A stretch of 37,305 nucleotides of DNA from an archaeon (lineage in GTDB: Archaea > EX4484-52 > B79-G9): the NCBI GenBank assembly GCA_043813875.1, contig JBDRKP010000077.1:1-37305 (forward strand). The letters are read 5' to 3'. The notes below the pieces were generated by a model. It ran no database searches and was not told where the DNA came from. It saw nothing but the letters and a program-made list of their open reading frames with translations. Positions 7,838 to 25,199 of this stretch are shown piece by piece. Within the stretch, counting starts at the first letter, position 1, and each line of letters begins with the position of its first letter. A program made the translations under genes and the position numbers.

Positions 7838-7933
7838 CCTCATACACACCTCATCAGGCTTCATCAATCAACAAGCACAATACGTGCCGTTTATCCAAAA
7901 CATAACACCCCGCAGCAGAGTCATACACACTTT

Positions 7934-7964
7934 TGTCCGTATAACTCCAGAAGTTATACTCAAT
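7934..7964 (+). other. Recombination-site-like box A (TGTCCGTATAA-ctccagaag-TTATACTCAAT)
   Basis: Internal inverted repeat GTATAACT/AGTTATAC. Related boxes occur at 13893, 15437 and 23564, each at the edge of an accessory gene. Confidence 0.5.
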
Positions 7965-8020
7965 CGGCGGCGGCTCGCACAGCATAACTATTTATATCAA
8001 ACTATCATAATAAGTATATT

Positions 8021-8467
8021 ATGAAACAAAAAATCTTTGTGGTATTGGCGATACTAGGAATAATTCTTGTCAGCGGGTGCGTGCAAGAAAAGCCAAAGAT
8101 TATCCCAAATAATGCCGACGTTTCAGATATTATAAATAATCCGCAATCGTATGATAAGACCACGGCTACGCTTAGCGGGGTTGTAATAAAAAATGTCGGG
8201 GCTTTCTTCGGTCCGGAATATGAATTGGCGGTATTTGATACTTCAAAAAGTTTCGACATGGCCACTGCGAAGCAGGTTGCATTGGTTTCAAAGGAAGGTT
8301 CGAATACAGATTTGTCAAGAACCGTAAGCTATACTTTCGATGGCCGTAGCTATACTCTGATAGAGCATCGAACCGTAACGCTTAAAGGTACTATTAAATA
8401 TATTGGTGAAGCTACTGATTCACCTCCTTTTTATTTTGAAGTGGAACAGATAATGGAAAACATTTGA
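8021..8467 (+). CDS. Hypothetical lipoprotein (possible OB-fold-like), accessory cargo
   Basis: Lipobox-like LVSGC after a hydrophobic leader. Base composition differs from the neighbours. Flanked by the inverted repeat 7964-7978/8483-8497. Confidence 0.7.
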   Translation: MKQKIFVVLAILGIILVSGCVQEKPKIIPNNADVSDIINNPQSYDKTTATLSGVVIKNVGAFFGPEYELAVFDTSKSFDMATAKQVALVSKEGSNTDLSRTVSYTFDGRSYTLIEHRTVTLKGTIKYIGEATDSPPFYFEVEQIMENI

Positions 8468-8690
8468 TTTTTAGAACCAATGGCGAGCCGTCGCCGAGTT
8501 CTCCGTTCGCTTCGCTCACTACGACCGCATTGGTCCAATTGGTCAACGGGAGTTTAACAAGCAGTTTAAGTTTTATAGCACGGCTTTTAGAACATCATGG
8601 ACCCAAAAAGTTACCTGCAAACCTCAACACTGTAACACACAGCCAAAAAAACCAAAATCTTTATTACACCCCTCGACCCAATAATAAGAC

Positions 8691-9164
8691 ATGCACAAAT
8701 TCAGCGTCTCATTCATACTTTTATTCATAGGCTGGATACTGTTCACAGGCGCCACCTATCCCGCAGAACTCATCATAGGCATCGCCATCTCGATCATAAT
8801 CGCAGACATCTGCGGCAAATTCATGTTCTACGAATCCCCCTGGCAGCTCTTCAACCCGAAATCCATGATCAACCAGATAATCTACCTCTTCATCCTCCTC
8901 TACTCTGAAATCAGATCACACATAGATCTCGCAGCAAGAATAATAACAGGAAACATCAACCCCGCCATAATAAAAATAACAACCATCCAGACCACCGACT
9001 TCACAAAGACCCTGGTCGCAAACGCGATAACAATGACCCCGGGCACACTCACCCTGAAGATAGACAGCAACGAAAAAGACCTCTACATCCACTGCATAAA
9101 CTACACCAAAAAAGAAGACATACACGGCCTCTTCGAAAGATACGCAAAAAAAGTGATACCATGA
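8691..9164 (+). CDS. mbhA: Mrp/Mbh complex subunit A (MnhE-like Na+/H+ antiporter subunit)
   Basis: INPAII…ANAITMTPGTLT…LYIH is an MnhE signature. First gene of a translationally coupled operon. Confidence 0.88.
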   Translation: MHKFSVSFILLFIGWILFTGATYPAELIIGIAISIIIADICGKFMFYESPWQLFNPKSMINQIIYLFILLYSEIRSHIDLAARIITGNINPAIIKITTIQTTDFTKTLVANAITMTPGTLTLKIDSNEKDLYIHCINYTKKEDIHGLFERYAKKVIP

Positions 9165-9394
9165 TAGAATACGCATTCATCGCATCAGCAGTGCTCCTGA
9201 TCTCAAGAGCCATACTCGGCCCCACGTACGCCGACAGGGTGATATCGATAGACACCCTGACAAACATCATAATAGTATTCATGGTAATCCACGCGATCAG
9301 GATAAAAAACCCCATGTACCTCGACACCGCGCTCCTATTCGCCCTCATCTCCTACGTCGGCATAATCGCGATCTCAAAACTGGTGAAAAAATGA
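9161..9394 (+). CDS. mbhB: Mrp/Mbh subunit B (MnhF-like)
   Basis: GPT.ADRVIS.D motif, three TM segments, ATGA overlap. Confidence 0.88.
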   Translation: MIEYAFIASAVLLISRAILGPTYADRVISIDTLTNIIIVFMVIHAIRIKNPMYLDTALLFALISYVGIIAISKLVKK

Positions 9395-9711
9395 TAGCAG
9401 ACATCCTCTTCGCAACATCCGCCTTCTTCGCCCTCCTCGGCGCCATCGGCCTCTTCCGCTTCCCCGACTTCTACACCCGCATCCACGCAGCGACGATGAT
9501 AACGATCGGCGGCGCATGCCTCGCCCTCGCATCACTCGCCATCACCACATACACCACCGAAGGCTACAGCATCATATACACCATAAAGATAATCCTCATA
9601 ATAACATTCATCCTCATAACCAACCCGACAAGCAGCCACGCCCTCGCCCACGCCGCCTACACCACAGGCATCGTGCCGAAAAACCTGATAAAAAACGACC
9701 TGGAGCAATAA
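9391..9711 (+). CDS. mbhC: Mrp/Mbh subunit C (MnhG-like)
   Basis: G..RFPDFYTRIHAAT and NP..SHALA motifs. Confidence 0.9.
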   Translation: MIADILFATSAFFALLGAIGLFRFPDFYTRIHAATMITIGGACLALASLAITTYTTEGYSIIYTIKIILIITFILITNPTSSHALAHAAYTTGIVPKNLIKNDLEQ

Positions 9712-9712
9712 C

Positions 9713-9976
9713 ATGTTAGAGACAATACCCTTCGAAGACGCGCTATTCGAAATACTATTGCTGGCAAGCATAATCGTATCCATAATCGCGATACACATGA
9801 AAGACCTCCTCTACGCCGTCATCATGCTCGCGATAGTCGACCTCTCGCTTGCAGCCCTCTTCTTCATGCTCGCCGCCCCCGACATCGCGATAACCCAGAT
9901 AGCAGTCACAGCAGCCCTTGCGACATTCATATTCATGATAGCCATCCACAAGACAGAAAGGAAAGAACAGCCATGA
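9713..9976 (+). CDS. mbhD: Mrp/Mbh subunit D (DUF4040/MnhB-N-like)
   Basis: KDLL.AVI…APDIAITQ motif and operon position. Confidence 0.82.
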   Translation: MLETIPFEDALFEILLLASIIVSIIAIHMKDLLYAVIMLAIVDLSLAALFFMLAAPDIAITQIAVTAALATFIFMIAIHKTERKEQP

Positions 9977-10275
9977 AACTGCTGCCAGTATACGGAGTCC
10001 TTGTATTCACGATACTCCTGCTCTATGCAGTATCAGACCTCCCGATAAACCACAACCCCGCCGTGAAAAACTACTACCTTCAAAACAGCCTCGAAAAGAC
10101 CGGCTCACCCAACATCGTCAACGCGATAGTCTGGGACTTCCGTGCCTACGACACCCTCGGCGAAGAGACCGTCCTCTTCACAGCAGTCCTCGCAGTATTC
10201 CTCATCGTCCACAGGAAAAGCGAATTCAAGCTCAAGACCCTCAAAAAACACATAAGGAAGATAACGGTGAGATGA
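9973..10275 (+). CDS. mbhE: Mrp/Mbh subunit E
   Basis: NIVNAIVWDFRAYDTLGE motif. Confidence 0.85.
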   Translation: MKLLPVYGVLVFTILLLYAVSDLPINHNPAVKNYYLQNSLEKTGSPNIVNAIVWDFRAYDTLGEETVLFTAVLAVFLIVHRKSEFKLKTLKKHIRKITVR

Positions 10276-10682
10276 TGGACCTCATAATAAAAACAGTCAC
10301 GCGCGTAATGTTTCCCTTCATAATACTCTTCGGCACATACATCGCTTTCCACGGCCACTTAAGCCCCGGCGGCGGCTTCCCTGCAGGCGCCATAATAGCG
10401 ACAGCATTCACCCTCCTCGTCCTCACCTTCACCGAAAAAGAAGTAGAGAACAGGTTCAAAGAATTCAGGCTCATAGACGCGAAAAGCATCGCAAGCATAG
10501 CCCTGCTGGTACTGATCATGCTCGAATTTTCAGTACGCGGAAAACTGCTCTCGCTCCAGGACAGCATGACCGTATGGTACGGCGGCGACACATTTTTCGC
10601 AAACATCTTCGGAAGCATGATAGTGGCGACAGGCCTCATAATCATCGTATACTCACTGGTAAAAGAGGAATGGAAACAATGA
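10272..10682 (+). CDS. mbhF: Mrp/Mbh subunit F (MnhB domain)
   Basis: HGHLSPGGGF.AG motif. Confidence 0.88.
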   Translation: MMDLIIKTVTRVMFPFIILFGTYIAFHGHLSPGGGFPAGAIIATAFTLLVLTFTEKEVENRFKEFRLIDAKSIASIALLVLIMLEFSVRGKLLSLQDSMTVWYGGDTFFANIFGSMIVATGLIIIVYSLVKEEWKQ

Positions 10683-11038
10683 TAGAGACAATAAATAACA
10701 TCGCCCGTGCATTCATCCCGAACGCGAACACACTGAAGATATTTGCGATATTCATAATCCTGTTCTTCGCCACACTGAAAAACAACCCGGTAGAATACGC
10801 AATAACAACACTGACCCCACTACAGCTCCACCAATACCACCACACGATCGCCCCCTTCACGCCCGTCGAACCGGAAGACTTCGGCACGAAACAATACTGC
10901 AAGGAAGCGACAGGCTTCATACAATGCGCAATACTATACCCGAAAGAGAACATGCAAAACATCGCGCTCTGGTACACGATATCAGCGCTGGCAGCCGGAC
11001 TCATAGCAAGATTCAGCAACAGAGGCAATGAACCATGA
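10679..11038 (+). CDS. Uncharacterised 119-aa two-TM membrane protein inside the mbh operon
   Basis: ATGA overlaps at both ends (10679 with the mbhF stop, 11035 with the mbhG start). Two hydrophobic segments flank a loop with two Cys. Same codon style as the operon. Confidence 0.7.
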   Translation: MIETINNIARAFIPNANTLKIFAIFIILFFATLKNNPVEYAITTLTPLQLHQYHHTIAPFTPVEPEDFGTKQYCKEATGFIQCAILYPKENMQNIALWYTISALAAGLIARFSNRGNEP

Positions 11039-11388
11039 TGATCGCATACTCATACATCACAGCCATAATACTCATAGCCCTCGGCACATACACACTCCTC
11101 GCAAAAGAGAACCTCATAAAAAAAGTCATAGGCCTCGGCATATTCACCGACGGCATCCACCTGCTCCTGATATCGATCGGCTACCGCGCCGAAGGCATAG
11201 CCCCGATAATAAGAGACATCAGCTTCAGCCAGTTCGGCACGATGGTAGACCCGCTCCCTCAGGCGCTCGTACTCACATCGATCGTGATTGACTTCTCAGT
11301 CACCGCGCTGGCCCTCGTCCTGATAATCCAGGTCCACAAGAAATTCAAAACGACAGACGCAAGAGAACTAAGGAGTCTGAAAGAATGA
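11035..11388 (+). CDS. mbhG: Mrp/Mbh subunit G (MnhC-like)
   Basis: NLIKKVIGL and DPLPQALVLTSIVI motifs. Confidence 0.9.
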   Translation: MMIAYSYITAIILIALGTYTLLAKENLIKKVIGLGIFTDGIHLLLISIGYRAEGIAPIIRDISFSQFGTMVDPLPQALVLTSIVIDFSVTALALVLIIQVHKKFKTTDARELRSLKE

Positions 11389-12830
11389 TAACAAGCTTCC
11401 TATCGATACCGGCGCTCCTGATAGCAGCATTCCTCATACCAGTCGCAGGCATCCACGAAAAAAAGATGGCCCCATACATCGCATTATCAGCGACAGCATT
11501 CAGCCTCCTCGCATCCATACTGACGATTCCCGAAATCATCGAAAAAAAGATACTCGTATACTACATGGGCGGCTGGGCCGCGCCATACGGCATAGCGATC
11601 GTAGTCGACTCATTCTCACTCATGGTGATAATACTTGTCACCCTCATAGGATTCCTCGCAACCCTCTTCTCACTGAAATACATAAAGGCATCAAGGGCAG
11701 AATACTACTCGCTCCTATGCCTGCTCCTCGTCGGCCTCCTCGGCATAACCCACACAGGCGACCTCTTCAACCTCTTCGTCTTCCTTGAGATAACATCACT
11801 CTCATCATATGCCCTGACATCATTCTATGCAGAAAAAAAATCAATTGAAGCAGCAATAAAATACCTGATAATGGGCGCATTCGCCACCTCGCTCGTCCTC
11901 CTCGCGATCGCCCTTGCATACGGCCTCACCGGCACCCTCAACATGGCAGACCTTGCACGCATACTAAAAAGCAGCACAAGCCCAACCGTCCCAATCATAA
12001 TGGGAATGCTCCTGACAGGCCTCGCATTCAAATCAGCGATAGTCCCGCTCCACGCATGGAAGCCTGACGTAATTGAGGCAACACCCGTCCCCATAGGCGC
12101 CATATTCGCATCAGCATCAACAACCGTATCAATCTACGCCATCATACGGGTGGCATACACGATATTCAGCGCTCCACTCACCTACACGCTCCTCATAGCC
12201 GGCACAATCACCATGCTCCTCGGCGCGATAATGGCCCTCCAGCAGAAGGACATCCTCCGCCTCCTCGCGTACTCGGCAATCTCGCAGGTCGGATACATCC
12301 TCATAGCATTCGCGACTGATGCCACATCAGGCATCTACCACCTCTTCAACGTAGCCATAATCGAGGCGCTCCTGTTTTTCTCAATCGGCGCAGTGATGAT
12401 TTCCACAAAAGAAAGCGACATGACACACCTGGGCAGGCTAACAGGCCACCACCCGGTAATACCAGCCGCATTCATGATAGGCATCCTCTCGAACGCAGGA
12501 ATACCGCTATTAAACGGCTTCTCAAGCAAATGGCTCATATACACGACAACCCTGCAAAGCTACCCGGTAATCATGATAGCCGCAATCCTCACATCAGTCC
12601 TCACCCTCGCATACTCCCTGAAAGCATACCAGCTCATATTCCGGTCCAGAAATATAGAGCAAACAAACCAAAAAAACATAGACCCGAAAATACTGGCCAC
12701 GCTGCTGATCCTTATGATGATCTGCATCTACTTCGGCATATTCGCAGGTTCTGGTGCAGAAATATCAGGAAACATCGCATCCACCCTATCAGATAACACG
12801 CAATACATAAAGGCGGTGCTGAAACTATGA
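11385..12830 (+). CDS. mbhH: Mrp/Mbh subunit H (MnhD/NuoN-like proton-conducting membrane subunit)
   Basis: GGW.APYGI, TGDLFNLFVFLEI, EAAIKY, K.AIVPLHAW.PD, RLLAYS, GIP.LNGF.SKW. Confidence 0.92.
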   Translation: MITSFLSIPALLIAAFLIPVAGIHEKKMAPYIALSATAFSLLASILTIPEIIEKKILVYYMGGWAAPYGIAIVVDSFSLMVIILVTLIGFLATLFSLKYIKASRAEYYSLLCLLLVGLLGITHTGDLFNLFVFLEITSLSSYALTSFYAEKKSIEAAIKYLIMGAFATSLVLLAIALAYGLTGTLNMADLARILKSSTSPTVPIIMGMLLTGLAFKSAIVPLHAWKPDVIEATPVPIGAIFASASTTVSIYAIIRVAYTIFSAPLTYTLLIAGTITMLLGAIMALQQKDILRLLAYSAISQVGYILIAFATDATSGIYHLFNVAIIEALLFFSIGAVMISTKESDMTHLGRLTGHHPVIPAAFMIGILSNAGIPLLNGFSSKWLIYTTTLQSYPVIMIAAILTSVLTLAYSLKAYQLIFRSRNIEQTNQKNIDPKILATLLILMMICIYFGIFAGSGAEISGNIASTLSDNTQYIKAVLKL

Positions 12831-13599: not shown

Positions 13600-13650
13600 A
13601 CACACAATATAAAACGCAGGACAAAAAAATAAAAGACACACGCAGACATC

Positions 13651-13719
13651 TTAGCCTATATAATCGCATATATCTCTTAACTTCTCAACAAATTCCCGCT
13701 CTTCGTCATTGTTAACCAT
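13651..13719 (-). CDS. Candidate 22-aa small protein MVNNDEEREFVEKLRDICDYIG
   Basis: ATG at 13719, TAA at 13651. TTTATATA on the minus strand (13743-13750) lies 24-31 nt upstream, which fits leaderless geometry. Confidence 0.35.
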   Translation of the reverse strand: MVNNDEEREFVEKLRDICDYIG

Positions 13720-13892
13720 ACTAACACAATGGACGCTTTAAGTATATAAACCTAACACATTCCATGAAAATGATTCCAAAAAAAAGCAACCCACCGGATT
13801 TGCAAATAAGACCGATAATTGCGCTTCCAGATAAGGCAGAAACCGGCAAAAAGCGCGCTCTTTGCCCAAAAACAACGCGTAAAGCGCACAAA

Positions 13893-13921
13893 AATTCGTT
13901 TAATCCCGAGTTATATCCAAT
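13893..13921 (+). other. Recombination-site-like box B (AATTCGTTTAA-tcccgag-TTATATCCAAT)
   Basis: Related to boxes A, C and D. Immediately followed by a 13-bp arm that recurs inverted at 15299-15311. Confidence 0.55.
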
Positions 13922-14030
13922 TTTTGGATTACCTCTAAAAAACGAGAGAATGTCCGAAGGACAACGCCTCTCTGACTTTTACTTCGTAAAAGAATTTATG
14001 GGAAGGAGGTGTCAAGATAGATATGTCTTC

Positions 14031-15110
14031 TCATTGTTTAATGTTAAATGAATTTATTGTATCATTAAATGTCTCTTCGTACATACGATATAACTCATCT
14101 TGAGAGCTATATGTGAAAATATAAGCTATCCCATTGGCGAAAAATACTACCTTTCTCAGTTTCCATCCGCTATCTTCCCCAACAAGTATATCATACCCAT
14201 CAATATTATTTACTGAAATTGTAGCCTCATTTAAGATTGGCAACCCTGACATCTCTGCTTCTTTTTTGAATTCATCTGTAACTTCGTGTAAATTTGTGGC
14301 TGATTTTACCATGAATTCGAGGTCAACTGAAACTTCTAATTCGTAATCAAGTCCTTCTAATTTTATTTTGATATCCTTTCCGAATGATACGACTTTTTTA
14401 ATATTCTCATCTGGAAAATCCTCACCAGTATGAATTTCCCAACCGTCTGGATATTCAAAACCATAGTTGAGTTTATCGTCATAAACATACCCTCCGGTTG
14501 ATAGAGGTCCTCCATATGGTTCTGGTTCATTAGGTAGATTTGGCATAATTGGTTGTTCTTCTGTTTGTATAGCATTTAATAATTCATAAGTTCCACATTT
14601 TGTGTCTACATAATTCTTAGTCTTACTATCAAATATAATCTCAACACTTGTTCTCATATTATTGATGATATTTCCGTTGGCATCTACTTGATAAAGAACT
14701 ATTGGTCTGATAAAATCCCCACAATATACATAATCTGGTTCATAGTCACCTGCATTCCCTAATTCAATATGTCTGCTTCCTAAATCACACATGTAATAAC
14801 CCTTGTCTGGTTCTAAATTAGGAAAACCTCTATCTTCAGGGGTTGAAGAAAACCACGCTACTCTTGAATCAAATATTAATCTATCAGTTTCAGTGCTGTA
14901 ATCTATTTTTTCAGCTACCCAAGCATCTGCTTGTTCATCATAACCATAAAGTATAGCGTTTGATAATTCCGGACAAACTATACCTGAACTTTGGTTTGGC
15001 TTAGTCAAGGACATCAAAATTCCAGATATAACTGCAATGGCTATTATACCTAAAATAATCGTCAAAATCAAATGTTTTCTAAACCAAGACTGTTTTAGTT
15101 CCTTTTCCAT
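14031..15110 (-). CDS. Membrane-anchored extracellular protein with C-terminal PsbP-like domain, accessory cargo
   Basis: N-terminal SWFRKH plus a TM anchor. C-terminal Y.FEYPDGW…ISVNNIDGY…AYIFTY…F…INSF pattern of PsbP-like domains. AT-rich. Confidence 0.65.
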   Translation of the reverse strand: MEKELKQSWFRKHLILTIILGIIAIAVISGILMSLTKPNQSSGIVCPELSNAILYGYDEQADAWVAEKIDYSTETDRLIFDSRVAWFSSTPEDRGFPNLEPDKGYYMCDLGSRHIELGNAGDYEPDYVYCGDFIRPIVLYQVDANGNIINNMRTSVEIIFDSKTKNYVDTKCGTYELLNAIQTEEQPIMPNLPNEPEPYGGPLSTGGYVYDDKLNYGFEYPDGWEIHTGEDFPDENIKKVVSFGKDIKIKLEGLDYELEVSVDLEFMVKSATNLHEVTDEFKKEAEMSGLPILNEATISVNNIDGYDILVGEDSGWKLRKVVFFANGIAYIFTYSSQDELYRMYEETFNDTINSFNIKQ

Positions 15111-15436
15111 TTATTCACCACTCTTAATGATATATATGCCTATGTTTATATACCATCCTGTTATTACGTACTCTCGGTCAATTTTTATGGAAAAACAAGA
15201 TCCCCTTCTATCTTCTTTTTTTAGAAAAAATAAACAAAAAATCTGACGCCTCTCTCTCGTCCTTAGGGCAGATACACTCGCCTGTGGCTTGAAAAGACGG
15301 TAATCCAAAAACTCTTCGCCAATTTTTGCCTTAGGCAAAAACCATTGCACTTTGGCTCGGTCTCCGCTATACTCCGACGAATATAGACTACACTCGGTTG
15401 CACCTCGCTTTGTCCAAATTTTTGGCTACGCCAAAA

Positions 15437-15466
15437 ACTTCTTTTAATCGCGAGATTATACGCAAT
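15437..15466 (+). other. Recombination-site-like box C (ACTTCTTTTAA-tcgcgaga-TTATACGCAAT), imperfect direct repeat of box B
   Basis: Closes the 14-15 kb cassette. Preceded by hairpins TTTTTGCC-tta-GGCAAAAA (15323-15341) and TTTTTGGC-tac-GCCAAAAA (15419-15437). Confidence 0.5.
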
Positions 15467-15566
15467 TCCAATTCAAAAATCACGCCAGACAAAAAACACC
15501 TTCTGCAATCCCACCAAAATCCCCCCCGGACACAATAATAAATAATTACAGTAACAAAAATACACC

Positions 15567-16262
15567 ATGAAAATAGTGATCTCACTCGGAGGCTCGCTTA
15601 TAACCGACGGCTTCAGCGCAGAAAAAATCAACGGATACAGAGAAGCCATAAAAGCCATACATAAGACAACAGACAAGCTGGTAATAGTGGTAGGCGGCGG
15701 AAAAATCGCCCGCGAATACATAGACCTCATAAAAGACATCGGCATGGACCGTAACGCCCAGGACAATATCGCAATAACACTCACCCACGCCAACGCAAAA
15801 ATCATATCACTCGCACTCAACCACAAGACCCCCGGCCTCGCAAACGAGACAATCCCGCGCACAGAACAGGACATAACAAATCAATTACAGAACCTAGACA
15901 GGTCAAAAATACTGGTCTGCGGCGGCACGATCCCGGGCCAGTCGACAGACAGCGTCGCAGCAAAGATAGCAAGAGACATCCATGCAGACCTCCTCATCAA
16001 CGCATCAGACATAGACGGCGTCTACGACAGCGACCCAAAAAAGAACATCGCCGCAAAAAAATACAACACCCTCACATACGACAGGCTCAGGGAAATCATA
16101 AGCAACAACGAGCAATCACCAGGCAAATACGCCCTGTTCGACAAATCGGCGGCAGACATAATAAGGCAGCACAAGATCAGGACAATAATCATCAATGCGA
16201 CAGACCCCGAAGAACTCATAAAAGCGACAGGAAAAACCCACACAGGAACAACAATAGAATAA
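15567..16262 (+). CDS. pyrH: Uridylate kinase (archaeal type)
   Basis: ISLGGS, VVGGGKIAREYI, GGTIPGQSTD.VAA, DGVYD.DPK and GT.I motifs. Confidence 0.95.
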   Translation: MKIVISLGGSLITDGFSAEKINGYREAIKAIHKTTDKLVIVVGGGKIAREYIDLIKDIGMDRNAQDNIAITLTHANAKIISLALNHKTPGLANETIPRTEQDITNQLQNLDRSKILVCGGTIPGQSTDSVAAKIARDIHADLLINASDIDGVYDSDPKKNIAAKKYNTLTYDRLREIISNNEQSPGKYALFDKSAADIIRQHKIRTIIINATDPEELIKATGKTHTGTTIE

Positions 16263-16481
16263 AACAGAATAGAGGTATGCCAGATGAGGCAAATCATGCG
16301 CCTTTCAGCGTTCAAAGACTGCACAGATGACATGAAACACCACGCAAAAATACAGGACTTCTTCTATAATTTACTAAAAGACATGGGCTTTGCAAGCCCA
16401 TTATATATTCATATTTCGAAGATGTCCCTTAAAAAAGAAGCATGAAGAACATATTCAAAAAAGAAGAAAATAGGTAAAATC

Positions 16482-16991
16482 ATGGAAAACGAATGCATGA
16501 TATGGCTTAAAGAGTGCATGGACGCATTTTCAAAATTGAAAAACTATAGGATAACCGCAGAATATGCAAAAATGAGCCCTGAAACACTCTACATAACACA
16601 CGGGAGTTCAAGAATAACCCGCGATATTGACCCTGAGACAGTTCTTCTAAAGGGAGATGCAAGCGTAACAATAATAGAGAAGCGCAATAAAAAGTTCAGA
16701 ATAGACTTAAACCAGAATATCAGGAAAATAAGAAATCCGCTCTTGCGAAAACAGGTGGTGACGCACATGCTGATCAGCGCCCTCGTGCGGATAGAAAGCA
16801 AGCGGATGATTACAAAAAGAAAAGAGGGCGAACGCAGAAAAAACAAGCGTATGCCAAAAAAAGAATTTGACGAGATATTTCTGGAGAAGTATAACGGAAT
16901 GCGCGCCAGATCCCGCCTGCCTCCCATTGCAAACATGGCAAATATCGATGCAGCGATAAGAAAGATACTATCGGAAATAAGGTTCGATTAG
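16482..16991 (+). CDS. Hypothetical basic protein, possibly a degenerate zincin/SprT-like fold
   Basis: 169-aa ORF. The FRIDLN…LRKQVVTHML segment resembles the context preceding HExxH, but the motif is not intact. Confidence 0.55.
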   Translation: MENECMIWLKECMDAFSKLKNYRITAEYAKMSPETLYITHGSSRITRDIDPETVLLKGDASVTIIEKRNKKFRIDLNQNIRKIRNPLLRKQVVTHMLISALVRIESKRMITKRKEGERRKNKRMPKKEFDEIFLEKYNGMRARSRLPPIANMANIDAAIRKILSEIRFD

Positions 16992-17005
16992 GATTGGTGA
17001 TAAAA

Positions 17006-17551
17006 ATGGCAATATTGCAGTTGAAAATAAGTTTAAAGGTCATCTCCCCCCCAGTCTGGAGGAGAATACTTGTCGAAGACAACATAACATTTGACAGACT
17101 CAACAACATAATTCAGGCAACAATGGGATGGGGAGGCTATCACCTGTATGTGTTCGACGTTGGCGGCGAAGAAATCGGCATCCCCGACAAAGAATTTGAC
17201 GTAGACATGACCGATTCCAGACGGGCTTATATCTCAAAATACCTTTACGCTGAAAACCAGAAGTTTGAGTATGTCTATGATTTCGGCGACAACTGGCAAC
17301 ACACAATAATTCTTGAAAAAATTCTTAGAAAAGACCCGAATGGAAAATATCCAATATGCATCAAAGGAAAAAATGCATGCCCACCCGATGATTGCGGAGG
17401 TCCATGGGGATATAAAGAATTGCTGGAAGCCATAAAAAATCCAAGCCATGAGGAGCATAAAGAAATGCTCGAGTGGATCGGCGGCGGCAAATTCGACCCA
17501 GAGGAATTCGACATTGACGATGTGAATGAAGAGCTTTCAGAATATCAATAA
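17006..17551 (+). CDS. Plasmid pRiA4b ORF-3 family protein
   Basis: QLKISL..ISPPVWRRI, L…IQ.TMGW…HL..F, Y.YDFGDNW.H and CPPDDCGG..GY. ATG at 17006 follows a GGTGA SD. Confidence 0.9.
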   Translation: MAILQLKISLKVISPPVWRRILVEDNITFDRLNNIIQATMGWGGYHLYVFDVGGEEIGIPDKEFDVDMTDSRRAYISKYLYAENQKFEYVYDFGDNWQHTIILEKILRKDPNGKYPICIKGKNACPPDDCGGPWGYKELLEAIKNPSHEEHKEMLEWIGGGKFDPEEFDIDDVNEELSEYQ

Positions 17552-17695
17552 TCATAATGCAGAAAAGAGCGAGCCTATAGGGAACAGCAGTACATCTAAA
17601 TATGCAGGGCGAAAAAAACACATAGTACAACAATTGCGTGAAAGGAGGAGGAGACGATAGAACCGCCAGTCAAAGATAAAGCAGAGCATCTCATC

Positions 17696-18136
17696 ATGCT
17701 TACCACTGAATTTTCAGACAAACATCTTGATGCAGAATATAAAGAGCTTTGCGAAAAGCTCATAATGAAGATGGCGCGCAAACGCAATGTGCCGTTCAGG
17801 TACGGGAAACCGGAAATATGGGCTGCGGCAGTCATCCATGCTGTAGGAAACATCAACTTCCTCTTTGACAAGAGCTTTAAGCCCTACATAAGCGCAGAGG
17901 ATCTATGCGATTACTTCGGCGCATCAACAAGTGCAGTCACAGGCAAATCCAAAAGCATCCGCGACATGTTCAGGATGGGATACTGGGACAGGGACTTTTC
18001 CACAAGGCGCATGAAAGAAAAAGACCCGTATGCCAACATGGTATCCATAAACGGCCTGATAGTGGATATACGCATGCTTCCGCCAGAATTACAGGAAATG
18101 ATGCAAAAAAAGAGAACAGAAGAAGAAAACAGATAA
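17696..18136 (+). CDS. DUF6398-like protein (true start may be about 13 codons upstream)
   Basis: L..EY..LC.KL..K.ARKR..P…G..EIWAAA…NFLFDKSF.PY pattern. Confidence 0.75.
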   Translation: MLTTEFSDKHLDAEYKELCEKLIMKMARKRNVPFRYGKPEIWAAAVIHAVGNINFLFDKSFKPYISAEDLCDYFGASTSAVTGKSKSIRDMFRMGYWDRDFSTRRMKEKDPYANMVSINGLIVDIRMLPPELQEMMQKKRTEEENR

Positions 18137-18149
18137 CGCTACACTTATA

Positions 18150-18479
18150 ATGGCAGGAATCAACAGGTTACAGGAAAAAGAATTCGAGAAGATGTTAGAG
18201 GAAGCGACAATCGATTGCTACAGTGAATACGAAGAATTTTCAGGCATTGAAACCGCACTTGACGACGAACTGGAATTCCCTTTTGATGCGCTCGTGCTTG
18301 GCAGGCAGGCAAAAATCACAGGTGTTGATTCTGACAAAAGCAGTTTGCGCGCAGGGATAATAATGAAGGCAGAGATTGACGGGAAGAAGCATGCAGTGGC
18401 GCTTACGATGATAGACATTGAAGACAAAGATTCAAAGAACGCAAAATGGCTTGGCGCAGTAAAATGGTGGATGCGATAG
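18150..18479 (+). CDS. CcbP-like (calcium-binding protein family) acidic small protein
   Basis: EATIDCY.E.E…G….L…L.FPF.A…G pattern and C-terminal N…L..(Y/V)KWW. Confidence 0.72.
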   Translation: MAGINRLQEKEFEKMLEEATIDCYSEYEEFSGIETALDDELEFPFDALVLGRQAKITGVDSDKSSLRAGIIMKAEIDGKKHAVALTMIDIEDKDSKNAKWLGAVKWWMR

Positions 18480-18689
18480 CGAAGATTATAAGTGATTATA
18501 TGGCTGATAACAAAATAGACCTGACATCCCATTTGTAGACACATGATTATCAGTCATCGCAACTGAATTATGTAAAAACATCAGCGATTCATAAAAAGAA
18601 GACCCAAAAAAACATAGCAGCCCGAAATGTAGAATAATATAAAAGCACATAAGCCCAAAAGTACATATACAAAAAAAACAGGGTCAAAC

Positions 18690-18929
18690 ATGCCAATCAC
18701 AACAGACTTCGAGATGATAATCAGCTTTTTTCTAATATCGATACTCATATTCAGCGCAATAAACATCATCTACCTCACGCGCATCTCAAGTAGCCTGAAA
18801 CAGCAAAAACAGGACACAAAAGAAGACCACACAACGAACCGCGACATACTGGCAGAAAAAATAGAGACCAACCACAACATACTCTCAGAACTCAACATGA
18901 AAATAGAAAAAATAAATAACAAAAAATGA
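18690..18929 (+). CDS. Small membrane-anchored coiled-coil hypothetical protein
   Basis: N-terminal TM segment and a charged tail. Backbone-like codon style. Confidence 0.55.
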   Translation: MPITTDFEMIISFFLISILIFSAINIIYLTRISSSLKQQKQDTKEDHTTNRDILAEKIETNHNILSELNMKIEKINNKK

Positions 18930-19267: not shown

Positions 19268-19307
19268 CACAAAAGACCGAAGACCCTAAAAGCCAGCTAC
19301 AGCCATA

Positions 19308-19745: not shown

Positions 19746-19849
19746 AAGCGAAAGATTGCAGAAGATAGCATTATATACCTTTACATCAAAAAAAGCCAAC
19801 ATTTGGTAACGGCACAGGCTTATATTACTAAAAAAACAAAATATAACCC

Positions 19850-20620: not shown

Positions 20621-20701
20621 GCAAGGAAGACAATCAGATTTATATTGATAGAGCATAATAATGGATACGAAATACAAGGCATGATCTCAAGAGAATAATA
20701 G

Positions 20702-22096
20702 GTGATAAAAATCGAAGACACCCTGAAGAAAGCCATAGAATACTCTAAATCAGCATCTGATTACTGCGACATCCGCTTAAACTCATCCTTCTCAGAAACA
20801 GTCTCAAAGACCCCGAAAGAAGAATCAAGCTCAACCAGCACCTCCGGAGGCATTGGCATCCGCGTATTAAAAGACGGCGCCTACGGCTACACGTCCTGCC
20901 AGAAGACAGACCTCGCATCCATAAAAGAAGCCATAGACAAGGCATCAAAGATCGCAAAAATCCAGTCCGGGAAAACAAAAAACAAGATCACCTACATAGA
21001 ACAGAAATCCATCACAGACACAAAAAGCACCAGAATAAAAATAGACCCCGCTGACATCTCACTCGTTGAGAAATACAGCATCTTGAAAGACGCATTCACC
21101 TACGCAAACCTAAAAGAGATAGTCTTCACGCAGGGAAGGATAAGCTCAGGAAAGACAGACAAGATATTCTTAAACACAGAAGGCAGCATAATAAAGACCC
21201 GCATCGCAAGAACAATCATCGCCCACACATCCGTCGCAAAAAGAGGCGCCCGCCAGACAATGAACTACGACGTCTACGCAAAGCCGCAAGGCTTCGAGAC
21301 AATAAAGGAGCTGGACATCGAAAGATTCATAACCAACATTTCAAGAAAAGCAATCTCATTCCTGGATGCCGTAAAGCCCCCTGAAGGCAAGATGGACGTC
21401 ATAATGTCCCCGCAGGTCGCAGGTACATTAATCCACGAAGTATTCGGCCACGCAGCAGAAGCAGACTGGGTAGCCAACGGCCGCTCGCTCTTAAAAGACA
21501 AGCTCAACAAAAGGATAGGAAGCGAGATGATGTCAATATATGACGACGGCTCCATGCCAGGCGGCTGGGGCACCATATACTATGACGACGAAGGCACCCC
21601 CTCAAAAAACACACTCCTCCTCGACAAAGGCATCCTCGTCCAGTACATGCACTCAAAAGAGACAGCAGCACGTCTCAACATGCCCCTCACAGGCAACGGC
21701 CGCGCCCAGGACCACACCCACACAGTCATTCCGAGGATGACAAACACCTACCTCGCGCCAGGCAGCCACAACATCGACGAGATGATAAAAGACACAAAAA
21801 AAGGCATAATCGTCGACAAATACACAGTCGCCCTCGAAGACCCTGCAGGCGGAAGCTTTGAGCTCAAGACCTTAGGCGGCCACATAATCGAAAACGGCGA
21901 GCTCAAAAAGCCCATCGAGCGCGCCACCATCTCATCATCATCATTCATAGACACATTCATGAACGTCTGCGCAATATCGAAACGCATGAACAAGATGAAC
22001 GTAGGCTCCTGCGGCAAAGGGCACGAAGACTGGGTAGCAGTCGGCAACCCATCCCCCCATGTAAAGATCCGCGACCTGATAGTAGGTGGTAACTGA
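20702..22096 (+). CDS. tldD: TldD metalloprotease
   Basis: HEVFGH..EAD, DDEG, GNGRAQ…PRMTNT and C-terminal CGK motifs. Confidence 0.93.
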   Translation: MIKIEDTLKKAIEYSKSASDYCDIRLNSSFSETVSKTPKEESSSTSTSGGIGIRVLKDGAYGYTSCQKTDLASIKEAIDKASKIAKIQSGKTKNKITYIEQKSITDTKSTRIKIDPADISLVEKYSILKDAFTYANLKEIVFTQGRISSGKTDKIFLNTEGSIIKTRIARTIIAHTSVAKRGARQTMNYDVYAKPQGFETIKELDIERFITNISRKAISFLDAVKPPEGKMDVIMSPQVAGTLIHEVFGHAAEADWVANGRSLLKDKLNKRIGSEMMSIYDDGSMPGGWGTIYYDDEGTPSKNTLLLDKGILVQYMHSKETAARLNMPLTGNGRAQDHTHTVIPRMTNTYLAPGSHNIDEMIKDTKKGIIVDKYTVALEDPAGGSFELKTLGGHIIENGELKKPIERATISSSSFIDTFMNVCAISKRMNKMNVGSCGKGHEDWVAVGNPSPHVKIRDLIVGGN

Positions 22097-23436
22097 TGTT
22101 CGACACTATACTAAAAAAACACAACTGCGAAGTCTTCATCTCAGACATATCGACAACAGAATGCCCGCTCGACATCAACGCATCATACACCAAATCGGTC
22201 CGTGAATCCGGCTACACCATCCGCACACTAAAGAACAACAGACTAGGCAGTTCATCATCAAACATATTCGACACCGAATCCATCAAAAAGACACTGAAAA
22301 ACAGCCTCGACTCAGCAGGACACTCAAACAAGCTGCCAAAAGGCTTCTCCTTCACCGGCACAGAAGGCAGCACCAAAGTCAGAAAGTGCCATGACAAGAA
22401 CATCTCAAAAAACCCGGAAACCATCGCAAGCGACCTTAGAGAGATCTGCGCAAAAAGAGCTTTAGAAGCAAACGTAAATCTCACAAACGGCAAGATAAGG
22501 CTGACAGAATTCGAATACACGATCACAAACAGCCTTGGCATAGAAAAAAAAGAGAAAGGCACATACATCCTTGCGATGATAGACTCAAAAGCCGACACAA
22601 AAAAGCAGGTATCCGAACTGACATCCACATACATAAGGCGCATATACGATAAATCAGACTTCCTCGACTGGTTTGACAAAACACTCAAGACAACCGCGAG
22701 ATTCATAGAGCCATCCAAACTGAAAAGCGGCACATACGACATAATATTGAACCCCGGGGTCATAGGCCCCCTGTTAACCGACACGATCGGCTACTGGTCA
22801 TCCGCCAAATCAAGGATAGACGGCATATCGCTCTTTGAAGGAAAAGAAAACACAACCGTGGCAGCCGAAACATTCAGCGCAACCGACGACCCCGCGTACC
22901 CCGACGCCCCCTCGACATTCGGCATCGACATGGAAGCACAGAAGACAAAAAAGACAGACATAATAAAAGACGGCATCTTCAGCAACTACTTCTACGACAA
23001 CAGGTACTCATCCTACTTCAACACAAAATCGACCGGCAACTCAAAAAAAGCAGCATATACCGGCCCGGAATACATCTACAACAGTTCCGGCTTCTGCGGC
23101 CCAAACAACCTCGTGATAAAAGAAGGAAAAGAACACCTAAGCTCAATGCTGAAAGACTTTACCGGCGTATTCATAGAAGCGGTCGGCATACCCTCCGCAG
23201 ACCGTGAGACAGGCAACTTCGGCTTCGAATTGAGGAACGCATTCCTTGTAGAAAAAGGCGAGATGAGACCGGTAAGATACGGCATCTACTCCGGCCGTGT
23301 CCAGGACATCATAAAAAGCGTATCATGGCTCTCAAAAGAAAGAGAGATCAGCGCAGACAGGATGGCCCCCGAATTCAACAGCGCATGCATCTCACCTTAC
23401 TTCCTCCTGAAAGACCAGAAGATCTCCGGCGAATGA
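22096..23436 (+). CDS. pmbA: TldE/PmbA family protein (non-catalytic partner)
   Basis: Coupled to tldD. TldD/PmbA-type segments (NSLG, DDP, D.E, STGN) and no HExxxH. Confidence 0.85.
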   Translation: MFDTILKKHNCEVFISDISTTECPLDINASYTKSVRESGYTIRTLKNNRLGSSSSNIFDTESIKKTLKNSLDSAGHSNKLPKGFSFTGTEGSTKVRKCHDKNISKNPETIASDLREICAKRALEANVNLTNGKIRLTEFEYTITNSLGIEKKEKGTYILAMIDSKADTKKQVSELTSTYIRRIYDKSDFLDWFDKTLKTTARFIEPSKLKSGTYDIILNPGVIGPLLTDTIGYWSSAKSRIDGISLFEGKENTTVAAETFSATDDPAYPDAPSTFGIDMEAQKTKKTDIIKDGIFSNYFYDNRYSSYFNTKSTGNSKKAAYTGPEYIYNSSGFCGPNNLVIKEGKEHLSSMLKDFTGVFIEAVGIPSADRETGNFGFELRNAFLVEKGEMRPVRYGIYSGRVQDIIKSVSWLSKEREISADRMAPEFNSACISPYFLLKDQKISGE

Positions 23437-23549
23437 GAGAGCGCATAATAGTCAACGCATTGTTTTTGCGCTCAAATGCGCATATCCGCTGCTCAAAAGA
23501 AAAATAGCTTAGGCATACACAAGTGCGCTTTTTGCTCATATTTTGAGAG

Positions 23550-23591
23550 TTAAACGAACTTTTAGTTCGTTTAATCGTTGTTATATTCAAT
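23550..23591 (+). other. Recombination-site-like box D with an 11-bp hairpin (TTAAACGAACT-ttt-AGTTCGTTTAA-tcgttg-TTATATTCAAT)
   Basis: 11-6-11 geometry at 23564-23591. The left arm is also the 3' side of a perfect hairpin. Sits at the edge of an AT-rich island. Confidence 0.55.
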
Positions 23592-23636
23592 AAAATTTCA
23601 ATTTCCGACTACTGTTTCGGGGGAGTTCCATAGTCC

Positions 23637-24332
23637 TTATAGGACTTCCATTGTAATTTCTCCAGGACTATAAAAATACGAACTGATATTCTTCTTGAAT
23701 ATTTCATACCTATTATTTCGATAATATCCGGCATATACTTTAGCATTAAAATGGCAATATGTACAACCTATCGAGGTCTGGTTTTTGCTATCTCTCAACG
23801 ATGGGAAAAAAGATGGAATGCTCTTATTTTCACCTGCAAAGGGATAACAGTTACCCATCTTAAATTTGTTGACAACATCTTTATTTCCCATAGGAATTAT
23901 CCTTTCAGAATGTGCGGGTATTAGTGGCAAGTAATATTGTTCATAATGGCTCTTAGGCATATTACATGAATGGAAAGCCACATAAACTTCATTAAATGTA
24001 TAGTCCCCAATATTTGTAATAATCATCGGAAGGTATTCTCCAAATTCTGCTTTGTAGAGAAAAGGAGATATTTCTATTTCAACATCGGGTTTTAATTTTA
24101 AGTTATCAAGTACTTGATTGTACTGATAGGTGATATGCAATTGAATTAAAAAAATTACGATTGCAAATAAAAATGTCCATAACAGAAATCTTCTTTTGCA
24201 TCCAAAAAAATCTGCTAGAAAATAAGTTATTTTATTCCATAAACCATCGATGTGTTGATGACAAAATTTAGACCCATCTGAAGCATTATTATTACAATGT
24301 CTTCCTTCCTTTGTCTTGCCTTGACAATCCAT
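23637..24332 (-). CDS. Hypothetical membrane protein with N-terminal Cys/His (C-x9-C-x10-C-x2-H) putative zinc motif, accessory cargo
   Basis: MDCQGKTKEGRHC…FCHQH, one TM segment, then an ITNIGD beta-sandwich-like domain. AT-rich. Confidence 0.65.
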   Translation of the reverse strand: MDCQGKTKEGRHCNNNASDGSKFCHQHIDGLWNKITYFLADFFGCKRRFLLWTFLFAIVIFLIQLHITYQYNQVLDNLKLKPDVEIEISPFLYKAEFGEYLPMIITNIGDYTFNEVYVAFHSCNMPKSHYEQYYLPLIPAHSERIIPMGNKDVVNKFKMGNCYPFAGENKSIPSFFPSLRDSKNQTSIGCTYCHFNAKVYAGYYRNNRYEIFKKNISSYFYSPGEITMEVL

Positions 24333-24490
24333 ATATTAGATATCGATTTATTATTTTAAATATGTCTTGCAGAAAACATCAATTCAAGAATTCCTCTCCA
24401 AGTTTCTAGACATCAACATCTATTAGATAAACAATATAACGGTGTTATATGTCGATAAAAATATATAGTTTTATGTGTAATTTTTAAAAC

Positions 24491-25084
24491 ATGAAAATTA
24501 AACGTATAATTCTTTTTTCCATCATATTAATTGCTACTGTTTTTCTAAGCGGTTGCTCAGGTCCGACTTCAACTACAGGCCAATCAATATTTTCAACAAC
24601 AAAATGTGAAGATGTCAAAGTGTCATATGAAGAACAAGAAGAATACTTAAAAACAGAATACTATACGGAGACGGTGCCTTATACGGATACTGAGTGTGAG
24701 AATAAACCCTTAGTTTATAAAAAAGAAAAGGGATCTTGCCAACAACGACAATCAGGTCTATTAGGATTTGGAGATCAACCCGCTGAATATTCATGCACGA
24801 TTACAAATCTTGATAGTGAAGGTGGAACTTTTTCTATGAGAATTGGTTTTAATGTAGGCAGTCAACAACTTGATACAACAGAAAGCAGATACATATATCC
24901 GCAATCGTCAGAGACGTTTAGTTACAGATATGATACAAAAATGAATGGTTGTTTTTGTATCGAGAATGTACCGACAAAACAAGTATGTAGGGATGTCATA
25001 AAATACAAAGAAGTTCAAAAAGAAAGACAAGTAACGGCATATCGACCTGTAACAAAATATAAAACGGAACAAAAATGTAAATAA
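24491..25084 (+). CDS. Hypothetical lipoprotein with Cys-containing extracellular domain, accessory cargo
   Basis: Lipobox FLSGC, ITNLD..GG.F and YTETVPY segments. AT-rich. Confidence 0.7.
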   Translation: MKIKRIILFSIILIATVFLSGCSGPTSTTGQSIFSTTKCEDVKVSYEEQEEYLKTEYYTETVPYTDTECENKPLVYKKEKGSCQQRQSGLLGFGDQPAEYSCTITNLDSEGGTFSMRIGFNVGSQQLDTTESRYIYPQSSETFSYRYDTKMNGCFCIENVPTKQVCRDVIKYKEVQKERQVTAYRPVTKYKTEQKCK

Positions 25085-25199
25085 TTCATCAAGATAATTA
25101 ACGGAACTCCCCCTCAAATCTTTCGAATATTTACAGTCCCCCTCACAGCACTCGAAACAGAACACATTCATAACCCTTAAAAAACAGACCGAATCCAAC

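Follow-up and report, generated by a model that had tools for sequence, protein, structure and literature searches.

Probable remnants of an integron-like gene-cassette system with an apparent Xer-type recombinase in an archaeal contig

Integrons are the textbook system of gene capture, and both their origin and the making of their cassettes remain open questions. A Xer-like ancestry is assumed for the integron integrase, IntI, whose specific insert reads the folded attC sites. In IMEX, above all in CTX-type phages, a folded single-stranded attP mimics dif. In the window considered here, 37,305 nt of DNA from a DPANN archaeon, the housekeeping genes are interrupted by three islands of low GC that encode surface proteins. 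In our preferred reading, to which a probability of about 70% can be given, the boxes at these islands are docking sites of an integron-like cassette system, with a Xer-type tyrosine recombinase as its most likely enzyme, and three loci of that system, with four or five cassettes in all, lie off-platform in the window. This reading explains the islands as old, decaying cassette insertions. The system would be a variant of the integron/IMEX types, of which we found no published description.

Like IMEX and the CTX phages, the present system has a Xer-family enzyme, a site predicted to fold from two inverted dif-like halves about 80–90 nt apart, integration beside a host site and tandem piling of elements; it differs from them in having no phage or replication genes, in its single- or few-gene units of 0.4–5.5 kb, and in its many dispersed sites and private clamp. 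With the Vibrio cholerae repeats of sedentary chromosomal integrons it shares chromosomal arrays and closing elements conserved within a lineage, whereas those use canonical IntI and elements of about 120 nt, and have no outer private stem. The pdif modules of Acinetobacter plasmids also have accessory genes bounded by Xer-type sites; these are inversely oriented 28-bp sites, while the boxes flanking locus 2, those of contig C65 and those of all the arrays described below are directly repeated, vary in spacer and come with a large foldable element. Instead of one 28-bp 11-6-11 site per replicon, as for Xer/dif resolution of chromosome dimers, spacers of 6–9 nt and at least seven box copies were found in the genome of the window (G000), with further copies of the closing element on C1, C16, C40 and C70. 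MITE or TIR transposon traits were not seen either, the outer repeats differing between cassettes and no flanking direct duplication being found.

The closest comparison is with integrons, archaeal integrons and CALINs included, as presented by Ghaly et al. (2022; PMC9668308). The likeness extends to a recombinase gene that diverges from an attI-like site, cassettes joined into arrays at G|TT, a closing element (E) of R''-L''...L'-R' layout with a GTTRRRY-like core, an R'' that pairs with the start of its own cassette, off-platform clusters without an integrase, and cargo rich in genes without known function and in genes for membrane or secreted proteins. On the other hand, the recombinase is here Xer-sized and without the IntI-specific insert; E is longer (150–190 nt), conserved in sequence across an order and provided with a 5' extension; a perfect cassette-specific clamp abuts both cargo ends; and the cargo has its own promoter and lies in either orientation, in place of mostly promoterless, one-orientation ORFs read from a platform promoter. 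The features of the window are given in Table 1; the cargo genes encode two lipoproteins and two membrane proteins.

Table 1. Coordinates of the cassette-related features of the window.
Feature	Position	Strand	Remarks
Probable decayed E of a lost upstream cassette (locus 1)	7838..7933	+	leads into box 1
Box 1	7934-7964	+	11-9-11; R' core GTTATACTC; read directly
Left arm, cassette-specific inverted repeat, locus 1	7964-7978	+	14/15 match to right arm
Cargo 1, 148-aa lipoprotein	8021..8467	+	lipobox LVSGC; no Pfam family
Right arm, inverted repeat, locus 1	8483-8497	+	14/15 match to left arm
Decayed closing element, cassette 1	8498..8645	+	5' part and R''-L'' (GAGTTTAAC, 8550-8558) kept; 3' half gone
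attI-like leader, locus 2	13765..13892	+	70% alike over 66 nt to recombinase-proximal region of C65
Box 2	13893-13921	+	11-7-11; read directly
Left arm, private repeat, locus 2	13921-13933	+	begins on last T of box; 13/13 match
Cargo 2, 359-aa membrane-anchored protein	14031..15110	-	weak PsbP-like C-terminus
Right arm, private repeat, locus 2	15299-15311	+	ends on A of ACTC; 13/13 match
Closing element E, locus 2	15311..15466	+	includes box 4; R''/L'' degenerate
Box 4	15437-15466	+	11-8-11; within E of locus 2
Tail of inserted block	15467..15552	+	in place of pyrH promoter of sister species
attI-like site with 11-bp hairpin, locus 3	23521..23591	+	includes box 3; 90% identical over 71 nt to C65:10000-10070
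Box 3	23564-23591	+	11-6-11; within attI-like site
Shared cassette left end, locus 3	23592..23629	+	AAAATTTCAATTTCC arm and GGGGGAGTTCC motif
Cargo 3a, 231-aa membrane protein	23637..24332	-	
Mini palindrome ATATAAC-GGT-GTTATAT	24434..24450	+	read directly
Cargo 3b, 197-aa lipoprotein	24491..25084	+	lipobox LSGC
GGAACTCCCCC, inverted copy of shared motif	25103..25113	+	no closing element after

The four boxes reported by the sequence-only reading were all found on direct reading, as were the two complements of their core that it had noted beyond the cargo (GAGTTTAAC, and CAATATAAC at 24432-24440). Checked against background frequency, the boxes are rare. The pattern T[AT]TAA-N5-10-TTATANNCAAT has six matches on both strands of the genome, four of which are the boxes of the window. 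When the 1.64-Mb genome was scanned with a two-arm weight matrix, the six top scores (24.3–30.9 bits) belonged to the same four boxes and to C65:10043 and C65:12065, and the score below them was 22.4 bits. Since the matrix was trained on those sites, the top scores are circular, and the evidence of rarity is the gap below them together with the locations, pattern and matrix restricting the boxes to contigs C77 and C65. Matches of at least 16 bits numbered 48 in the real genome and 17–39 in shuffled genomes. Rfam gave no match within the window. It would be very hard to maintain that chance explains the repeats and that the boxes are plain promoter, operator or terminator motifs of an archaeon (TATA-like TTATAT). 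The right arm of the boxes does resemble a TATA box, the intergenic DNA around it is AT-rich, and one repeat, that of locus 3, is matched in some shuffles (see below), but the real promoters of mbhA and pyrH are close to their ATGs and away from the boxes, the boxes are limited to two contigs, and a box stands beside the recombinase gene in 14 of 31 cases. The comparison of R'' with R' and the anchored-repeat shuffles, both given below, speak against chance, and all these results together already contradict such a reading.

Concerning the enzyme, the window encodes no recombinase, as the sequence-only reading had stated, while the search of the genome (91.5% complete) gave one on C65, directly beside a box. 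Among three PF00589 matches this gene, P0001, is the sole intact one, and it is the only intact Xer-family gene of the genome; the box at C65:10043 is 121 nt from its start. P0001 has 276 aa. Aligned to VchIntIA (2a3v), its residues 182–200 span IntI 178–241, about 45 residues being missing, and the IntI-specific additional domain around patch III is absent. TIGR02249 scored 171.7 bits (cut-off 265), in two stretches, and on the question of an XerA equivalog the best family, NF040815, scored 178.5 bits (cut-off 220); among solved structures its best relatives are XerA from P. abyssi and from Thermoplasma (4a8e, 5hxy). A Xer-type recombinase rather than a classical integron integrase appears to run the system. 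A box was found within about 400 nt of the recombinase gene for 14 of the 31 homologues examined, and two to four E, all in one orientation, form arrays within DNA of low GC next to recombinases in G007, G005, G020 and G034 (two loci). Rarity, linkage to the recombinase and these arrays all support the earlier proposal that the boxes are tyrosine-recombinase sites of a gene-cassette system. The system is not, however, intrinsically one of solo dispersed units, as had been thought, because in relatives the recombinase is accompanied by arrays of integron style. Such cassette arrays, attC-like in their logic and adjoining Xer-type enzymes that have no integron-specific domain, offer a natural system for asking whether that extra domain is needed for folded-site recombination.

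In these arrays, each distal box ends a conserved E, built like attC and predicted to be foldable. A cassette starts with TTAnnnnCAAT, followed by a cassette-specific arm, the cargo with a promoter of its own, the complementary arm and E, which comprises, in order, ACTCTTCG, a small hairpin or a pair of them, R'' (TATAAC), L'', two further hairpins, L' and a spacer whose last letter is G. In all nine intact cassettes R'' was complementary at 8–9 of 10 positions to the R' of its own start, 0.4–5.5 kb away, and at 6–7 of 10 to the adjacent R'. The better fit of R'' to its own cassette start than to that of the neighbour places the predicted crossover at G|TT, between the terminal G of E and the TT of the next unit, and the matches of the contigs described below start within 1–2 nt of it. 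A perfect private repeat of 9–17 bp, from the last T of the box to the A of ACTC, abuts both cargo ends in ten cassettes, and inspection by eye added further ones in G034:C82 (four), L086 and G022; a perfect partner was absent for 8 of 18 boxes, namely box 3, box 4, the box of locus 1 (with a single mismatch) and five that come last in their retrieved stretch. The cargo-enclosing stems proposed earlier are real and general, and the cargo does occur in either orientation (Table 1), with TATA-like boxes near the ATGs in the window.

Folded as single-stranded DNA, intact E gave an R stem, an L stem and two hairpins, with z of -4.2 to -6.6; for four of six elements none of 200 shuffles was as stable, and the other two fold no better than shuffles. 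When sites were rejoined in silico the clamp formed in 10 of 10, with z of -2.8 to -11.4. RNAalifold on a MAFFT alignment of E gave no consensus structure. It seems reasonable to propose that, in an excised circle, E would be rejoined to its own TTAnnnnCAAT, and that single-stranded E may fold into two duplexes that bind the recombinase, R''/R' and L''/L', with a small internal loop between them, by analogy with the folded attP of phage CTX or the bottom strand of integron attC. The arms specific to each cassette would act as a clamp that closes the whole fold. The folded E could then recombine, by one strand exchange, with the double-stranded attI-like box beside the recombinase gene, and replication would resolve the product. 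Strand specificity and single-strand folding are predictions from the sequences themselves.

The sites are considered attC-like rather than strict dif, as the sequence-only reading preferred, because of their 6–9-nt spacers and the foldable R''-L''/L'-R' element. A double-strand Xer-type reaction is a less probable alternative, suggested by the lack in P0001 of the insert with which IntI reads folded attC. P0001 would then be the housekeeping XerA, the adjacent box the chromosomal dif, and the cassettes IMEX- or dif-module-like elements piled at dif, the folding of E being irrelevant. This agrees with the XerA proteins as nearest solved relatives, with P0001 as sole intact Xer-family gene, with the 11-6-11 layout of box 3 and C65:10043, and with the perfectly palindromic 11-6-11 site adjoining other paralogues in the order (L024, L026). 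It is nevertheless rather unlikely: the spacers of partner boxes vary in length and sequence, which classical two-step strand exchange is not known to tolerate; a purely double-strand reaction gives no role to the private clamp or to the conserved inverted R''-L'' half, which covaries with L'-R' and with the own R'; and the many box copies of G000 are not a single dif.

As to the window itself, under the preferred cassette reading its copies are decayed fossils, in that E of locus 2 has no R''/L'' pairing, E of locus 1 no 3' half and locus 3 no closing element. The flanking repeats claimed for the three loci are all present. In 1000 dinucleotide shuffles of the downstream 3 kb, an anchored repeat partner was met in none for locus 1 and in one for locus 2, but an unanchored repeat of at least 11 bp, as in locus 3 (23619-23629/25103-25113, 11/11 match), was met in 48, and the repeat of locus 3 is therefore weak on its own. 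Nor is it private, as had been claimed, GGGGGAGTTCC being a shared motif that follows the first box in C65, G007, G020 and G034.

In locus 1, the spacer and left arm of box 1 are similar to E-variant boxes at C16 and C40, and the stretch that precedes it is missing from G002. In G022, of another family, a full E precedes the homologous cassette, which lies in an array; its R' and left repeat arm are identical to those of locus 1 at 28 of 29 positions (G022:C39) and the gene at only 70%. Six of seven sister species gave no match to cargo 1, and G006 a weak N-terminal one (E 9e-6). The closing element of cassette 1 is colinear with the G022 E, and its R'' is complementary to the own R' at 8 of 10 positions. 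In locus 2, relatives of the cargo are patchy, in three other families, with one weak match within the genus (G006), and the arm is found with other cargo in G007. Its E matched the E profile with nhmmer at E 2e-29, a partly circular score since this copy was one of the ten profile sequences; an independent BLAST match with the G020 E had 71% identity (E 4e-14). On folding, the R/L stems of this E were not formed (z -1.35).

The empty sites of loci 1 and 2 in sister species had been expected to have their junction at G/TT. Instead, the junctions are 94 nt (locus 1) and 128 nt (locus 2) to the left of the boxes, with no box there, and the block of locus 1 ends at 8645 in all sister genomes; the leader of locus 2 is missing from G005, G006 and G007. 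What is missing whole is a landing-site-like leader, the cassette and the closing element, and this absence from sister species marks both blocks as accessory. Delivery of single genes into these two sites by box recombination, as proposed before, is consequently left without support. In locus 3, the identity to C65:10000-10070 stops exactly at CAAT, and the attI-like site is 94% identical to G001:C9; the left-end module recurs in G020, G034, G022 and G000:C1. The mini palindrome is possibly a collapsed R''/R' site that divides the locus into two cassettes.

Some observations bear on how cassettes acquire genes. The recombinase might move an empty E with a short palindrome, the genes entering the palindrome centre by a second mechanism and the private repeat being the split palindrome; we consider this improbable. 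Public contigs join 10070 to 11904, and 10086-10106 to 11849-11887, without the 1.8-kb interior, giving box-to-E or box-short-hairpin-E forms; G020 has an ORF-less cassette of about 200 nt; and the cargo next to the arm AAAATTTCCATTTCC differs among G020, G034, G022 and the window, the arm of locus 2 likewise having other cargo in G007. However, these joints rest on single short contigs, whose shorter side has 24–58 letters and whose letters between the sides are not known; the retrieved genomes showed no empty unit; and neither an enzyme nor a target rule is at hand. Such loading is compatible with the main explanation and not exclusive of it. Taken jointly, the two would make a two-tier gene-capture machine of DPANN and CPR, in which a folded single-stranded site lets an insert-less Xer-type recombinase move cassettes at G|TT, and genes are loaded into empty, hairpin-only cassettes at the palindrome. 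Doubtful as this combination is, it would, if true, show a pre-IntI stage of integron evolution and a route to de novo cassettes, the making of which is an open question of integron biology.

In data S1 of Ghaly et al. (PMC9668308), all 15 DPANN rows among those listed are attC clusters without IntI; the present system may explain this pattern if those clusters are of its type. Concerning mobility, public metagenome contigs from two studies, not tied to an organism, carry the C65 cassette at 90–96% likeness (about 95%), the sequence on its left side being unlike. The match begins at 10061, 1–2 nt off the predicted crossover 10059|10060, and many of the matching contigs break at 11904, the start of E. 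One E is 93% identical across families f1 and f6, half the genomes of one DPANN order have the system, and a CPR bacterium has at least one copy of it.

The boxes of the arm-spacer-TTATAnnCAAT type, the flanking inverted repeats and the complements of the GTTATA core noticed by the sequence-only reading were all present at their positions (see table), the boxes having been read directly in the sequence. The box pattern of that reading has 6 matches genome-wide, 4 of which are boxes 1–4. When the genome was scanned with a two-arm matrix, the six top sites were boxes 1–4 and two sites on contig C65, with at least 24.3 bits versus at most 22.4 bits for all the others; since the matrix was trained on the same sites, the evidence lies in their placement and not in the score. 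Concerning the inverted repeats, shuffle controls gave anchored arm partners in 0/1000 cases for locus 1 and 1/1000 for locus 2. At locus 3 a comparable unanchored 11-mer repeat appeared in 48 of 1000 shuffles, and the claim is weaker there. An interpretation of the boxes as promoter or terminator motifs was rejected.

The window is an entire contig (C77) of a 90-contig, 1.64-Mb archaeal MAG (G000, completeness 91.5%), and contains PolD, Mbh/Mrp and HypD genes. The native genes of G000 have a coding strand strongly rich in A and C; loci 1–3 are of low GC (0.28–0.39) with skew near zero. The strand composition is unusually strong throughout G000 and the window (A>T and C>G in native coding strands), with contig-wide GC skews down to −0.26 and AT skews up to +0.37. 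A scan of the window for tRNA and Rfam families gave nothing relevant.

Positions of the features discussed (window coordinates unless a contig, C, is named; contigs belong to G000 unless another genome, G, is named)
Feature	Position	Description
Box 1	7934	
Box 2	13893	
Box 3	23564	
Box 4	15437	closes locus 2
Inverted repeat, locus 1	7964/8483	14/15 bp
Inverted repeat, locus 2	13921/15299	13/13 bp
Inverted repeat, locus 3	23619/25103	11/11 bp
Complements of GTTATA core	8550; 24432	
Boxes outside the window	C65:10043; C65:12065	
Locus 1	7840-8645	in order: probable decayed E (7838-7933), box 1, arm, lipoprotein gene, arm, E remnant
Locus 2	13765-15552	in order: attI-like leader, box 2, arm, membrane-protein gene (-), arm, E with box 4
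Locus 3		in order: attI-like site, left-end module, two divergent genes with mini palindrome between
P0001	C65	intact gene, 276 aa; PF00589 match
Integrase	C55	451 aa; PF00589 match
Recombinase fragment	C40	with stop codons; PF00589 match
Further E copies	C70; C16; C40; C1	C40 copy beside recombinase fragment
Loci with several boxes or E	C65; G007:C16; G005:C78; G020:C1; G034:C50; G034:C82	
Repeats in attI-like region (L017)	6665-6830 of L017 (G007:C16)	three direct copies of TTAAGCAGAC, ~38 nt apart
Small ORF	13650-13719 (-)	~22 codons, own TATA-like box, beside mbhJ
Gene island	16262-18716	169-aa unknown, PRiA4_ORF3, DUF6398, CcbP-like; GC skew positive
Intergenic stretches	34172-34232; 34352-34416	
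~74-nt repeats	C10:10759/10833; C11:2486/2560; C49:9478/9560	also on C5, C23, C28, C34, C50, C53, C85 and others

The cassettes are linked to a recombinase. A Pfam search of the genome for PF00589 gave three places, and the start of the gene on C65, encoding the Xer-family recombinase P0001, lies 121 nt from box C65:10043, with the gene directed away from the box. The attI-like site of locus 3 (23521–23591) is 90% identical to its counterpart C65:10000–10070, the identity ending exactly at CAAT. P0001 is closest to XerA (NF040815, 178.5 bits, under the cut-off of 220), its best solved relatives being 4a8e and 5hxy. Its alignment with the integron integrase 2a3v falls in two pieces, with ~45 residues skipped at the position of the IntI-specific domain. 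In this it differs from the published archaeal integrons, which have a canonical IntI with the specific domain (PMC9668308). Archaeal integrons found there number only six, the majority of loci being CALINs, and data S1 gives zero IntIs in all 15 DPANN rows listed (PMC9668308); neither of two motifs of the closing element described below occurs in supplement file 1, a file that may not list attC sequences. The accessible text of a tyrosine-recombinase survey distinguishes an Xer-related 'Cand' subgroup from candidate phyla with no cassette role assigned (PMC8138268), and in that of a review integrons appear only as one item among the general roles of tyrosine recombinases and as a family for comparison, with neither an archaeal cassette system nor IMEX named (PMC8371274). 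Among open PMC papers and bioRxiv, no description was found of cassette arrays of the Xer type in which the cassettes have palindromic ends.

The cassette units have definite boundaries and follow rules of complementarity. Every distal box forms the 3′ terminus of E, a conserved closing element of 150–190 nt. From 5′ to 3′, E comprises ACTCTTCG with small hairpins (one or two); GTTGCACT; R″ (TATAAC) and L″, separated by a short spacer; a pair of hairpins; and L′, a spacer mostly ending in ATG, and TTAnnnnCAAT. On reading, the L″/L′ arms were seen to vary among E copies in a compensating manner. A perfect, cassette-specific inverted repeat of 9–17 bp runs from the last T of the box to the A of ACTC; it was found for 10 of the 18 boxes tested, and the rule holds across genera. 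The boxes without a perfect repeat were that of locus 1 (one mismatch), boxes 3 and 4, and five that were the last in the fetched stretch; further cases were read by eye. E was also considered as a MITE inserted into palindromes, which was rejected because both arms flank the cargo and not E. An IS200/IS605-type end, suggested by the hairpin and the TCAA-like end, was dropped after the recombinase and the arrays were found.

In each E, R″ is complementary at 8–9 of 10 positions to the R′ (right end of the box) that starts its own cassette, at a distance of 0.4–5.5 kb, versus only 6–7 of 10 for the adjacent R′. This preference was seen in 9/9 intact cassettes, across genera; the decayed locus-2 copy, which could not be scored properly, is outside this count. 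An exchange of units at G|TT would be expected to leave this signature.

Folded as ssDNA, intact E gives R and L stems with an internal loop between them, and two hairpins at the tip. Four of six copies reached z values of −4.2 to −6.6, with 0/200 shuffles as stable; the other two gave −1.9 and −1.3. In the locus-2 E of the window the stems were not formed (z −1.35). When cassette ends were rejoined in silico to their own starts, the clamp made by the arms appeared in 10/10 minimum-energy folds (z −2.8 to −11.4). RNAalifold on a MAFFT alignment of E returned zero pairs because the MAFFT register was poor. We infer that the site would act as a folded single strand, with the clamp as its closing stem, undergoing one strand exchange with the attI-like duplex, and that replication would resolve the product. 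The main rival explanation is a double-strand Xer/dif reaction, in which the site would not be a folded single strand.

The loci of the window are accessory and their copies are decayed. The closing E remnant of locus 1 keeps R″-L″ and has lost the 3′ half; the sister genome G002 lacks the entire block, and homology to the window resumes at 8645 in every sister genome. Decayed remnants such as 7838–7933 look ameliorated toward the strand bias of G000. In the E of locus 2, R″/L″ are degenerate; in place of the locus-2 block, G005, G006 and G007 have 37–138 nt, and G002 has 364 nt of other repeats. Where sister genomes have empty sites for loci 1 and 2, these have no recognisable box and lie 94–128 nt outside the boxes. 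The expectation of empty-site junctions at the boxes was thus not borne out. Locus 3 has a left-end module, AAAATTTCAATTTCC ... GGGGGAGTTCC, common to G020, G034, G022 (other genomes of the order) and G000:C1, and its mini palindrome is ATATAAC-GGT-GTTATAT; neither a closing element nor a partner arm was found there, and no empty site can be defined because gene order is not retained downstream of pmbA. Sister genome G007 has an arm in common with locus 2; a left partner for this G007 arm was not found. G007 also carries its recombinase and array ~5 kb upstream of mbhA, and the genes in between are in G000 on C40 (9009–13674 and 16427–16904), by the recombinase fragment and E. Given this arrangement and the resumption at 8645, rearrangement breakpoints seem to coincide with cassette loci.

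A P0001 relative is present in 33/41 genomes of the order, and a box lies within ~400 nt of the recombinase gene in 14 of the 31 cases in which genes were fetched with flanks. At six loci, several boxes or closing elements lie in DNA of low GC and share a single orientation, directed away from the recombinase. In the attI-like region of G007, TTAAGCAGAC is the inverted left arm of the G007 box, and its copies may be accessory binding sites.

BLAST found E-like DNA in 21/42 genomes and 8/13 genera of the order, with one E copy 93% identical between families. In G022, of another family, the locus-1 cassette is inside an array and colinear, with R′ plus arm identical at 28/29 positions and the gene only 70% identical. 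A MAG labelled Saccharibacteria, with bacterial RelA/SpoT, ParB and MiaA genes, has a 37%-identical recombinase, a box, an E (nhmmer E 1.9e-21) and an LD-carboxypeptidase cassette flanked by arms; among 80 bacterial loci around P0001 relatives, the search for E gave only 1 strong and 2 weak matches. Among public runs with the label groundwater metagenome, two studies each had a single contig with the C65 cassette at ~95% identity, the match beginning in both at 10061 with DNA leftward unlike C65; many contigs break at 11904. These contigs come from organisms not assigned, and 17/17 runs held at most 0.20 of the query words, uncovered parts of C65 (e.g. the recombinase gene) being uninformative. 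Single short contigs of the same runs, likewise from organisms not assigned, have E joined straight to the box or to a short hairpin. The loading of cargo into hairpin-only cassettes, as a second tier, would be compatible with the folded single-strand site.

Other repeats and islands were also observed. G002 and G007 lack the four-gene island and have 40–84 nt in its place; neither box nor E was found at the edges of the island. Where G000 has locus 2, the mbhJ-pyrH intergenic region of G001:C4 and G002:C181 holds a different small repeat (CCAGTGACCTAAACCGAAGG...), and the small ORF beside mbhJ is conserved next to it in five sister genomes. The two intergenic stretches near 34 kb are 86–95% identical to unrelated places in G006:C67 and G003:C128, which suggests, from sequence identity, another small dispersed repeat. 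Outside the window, G000 has a family of ~74-nt repeats, often in tandem, ending in TTATACACAAT plus an A-run, with internal hairpins ACAATAAAAAA/TTTTTTATTGT and TGAAAT/ATTTCA; it makes up most of the excess of TTATANNCAAT in the genome (46 matches).
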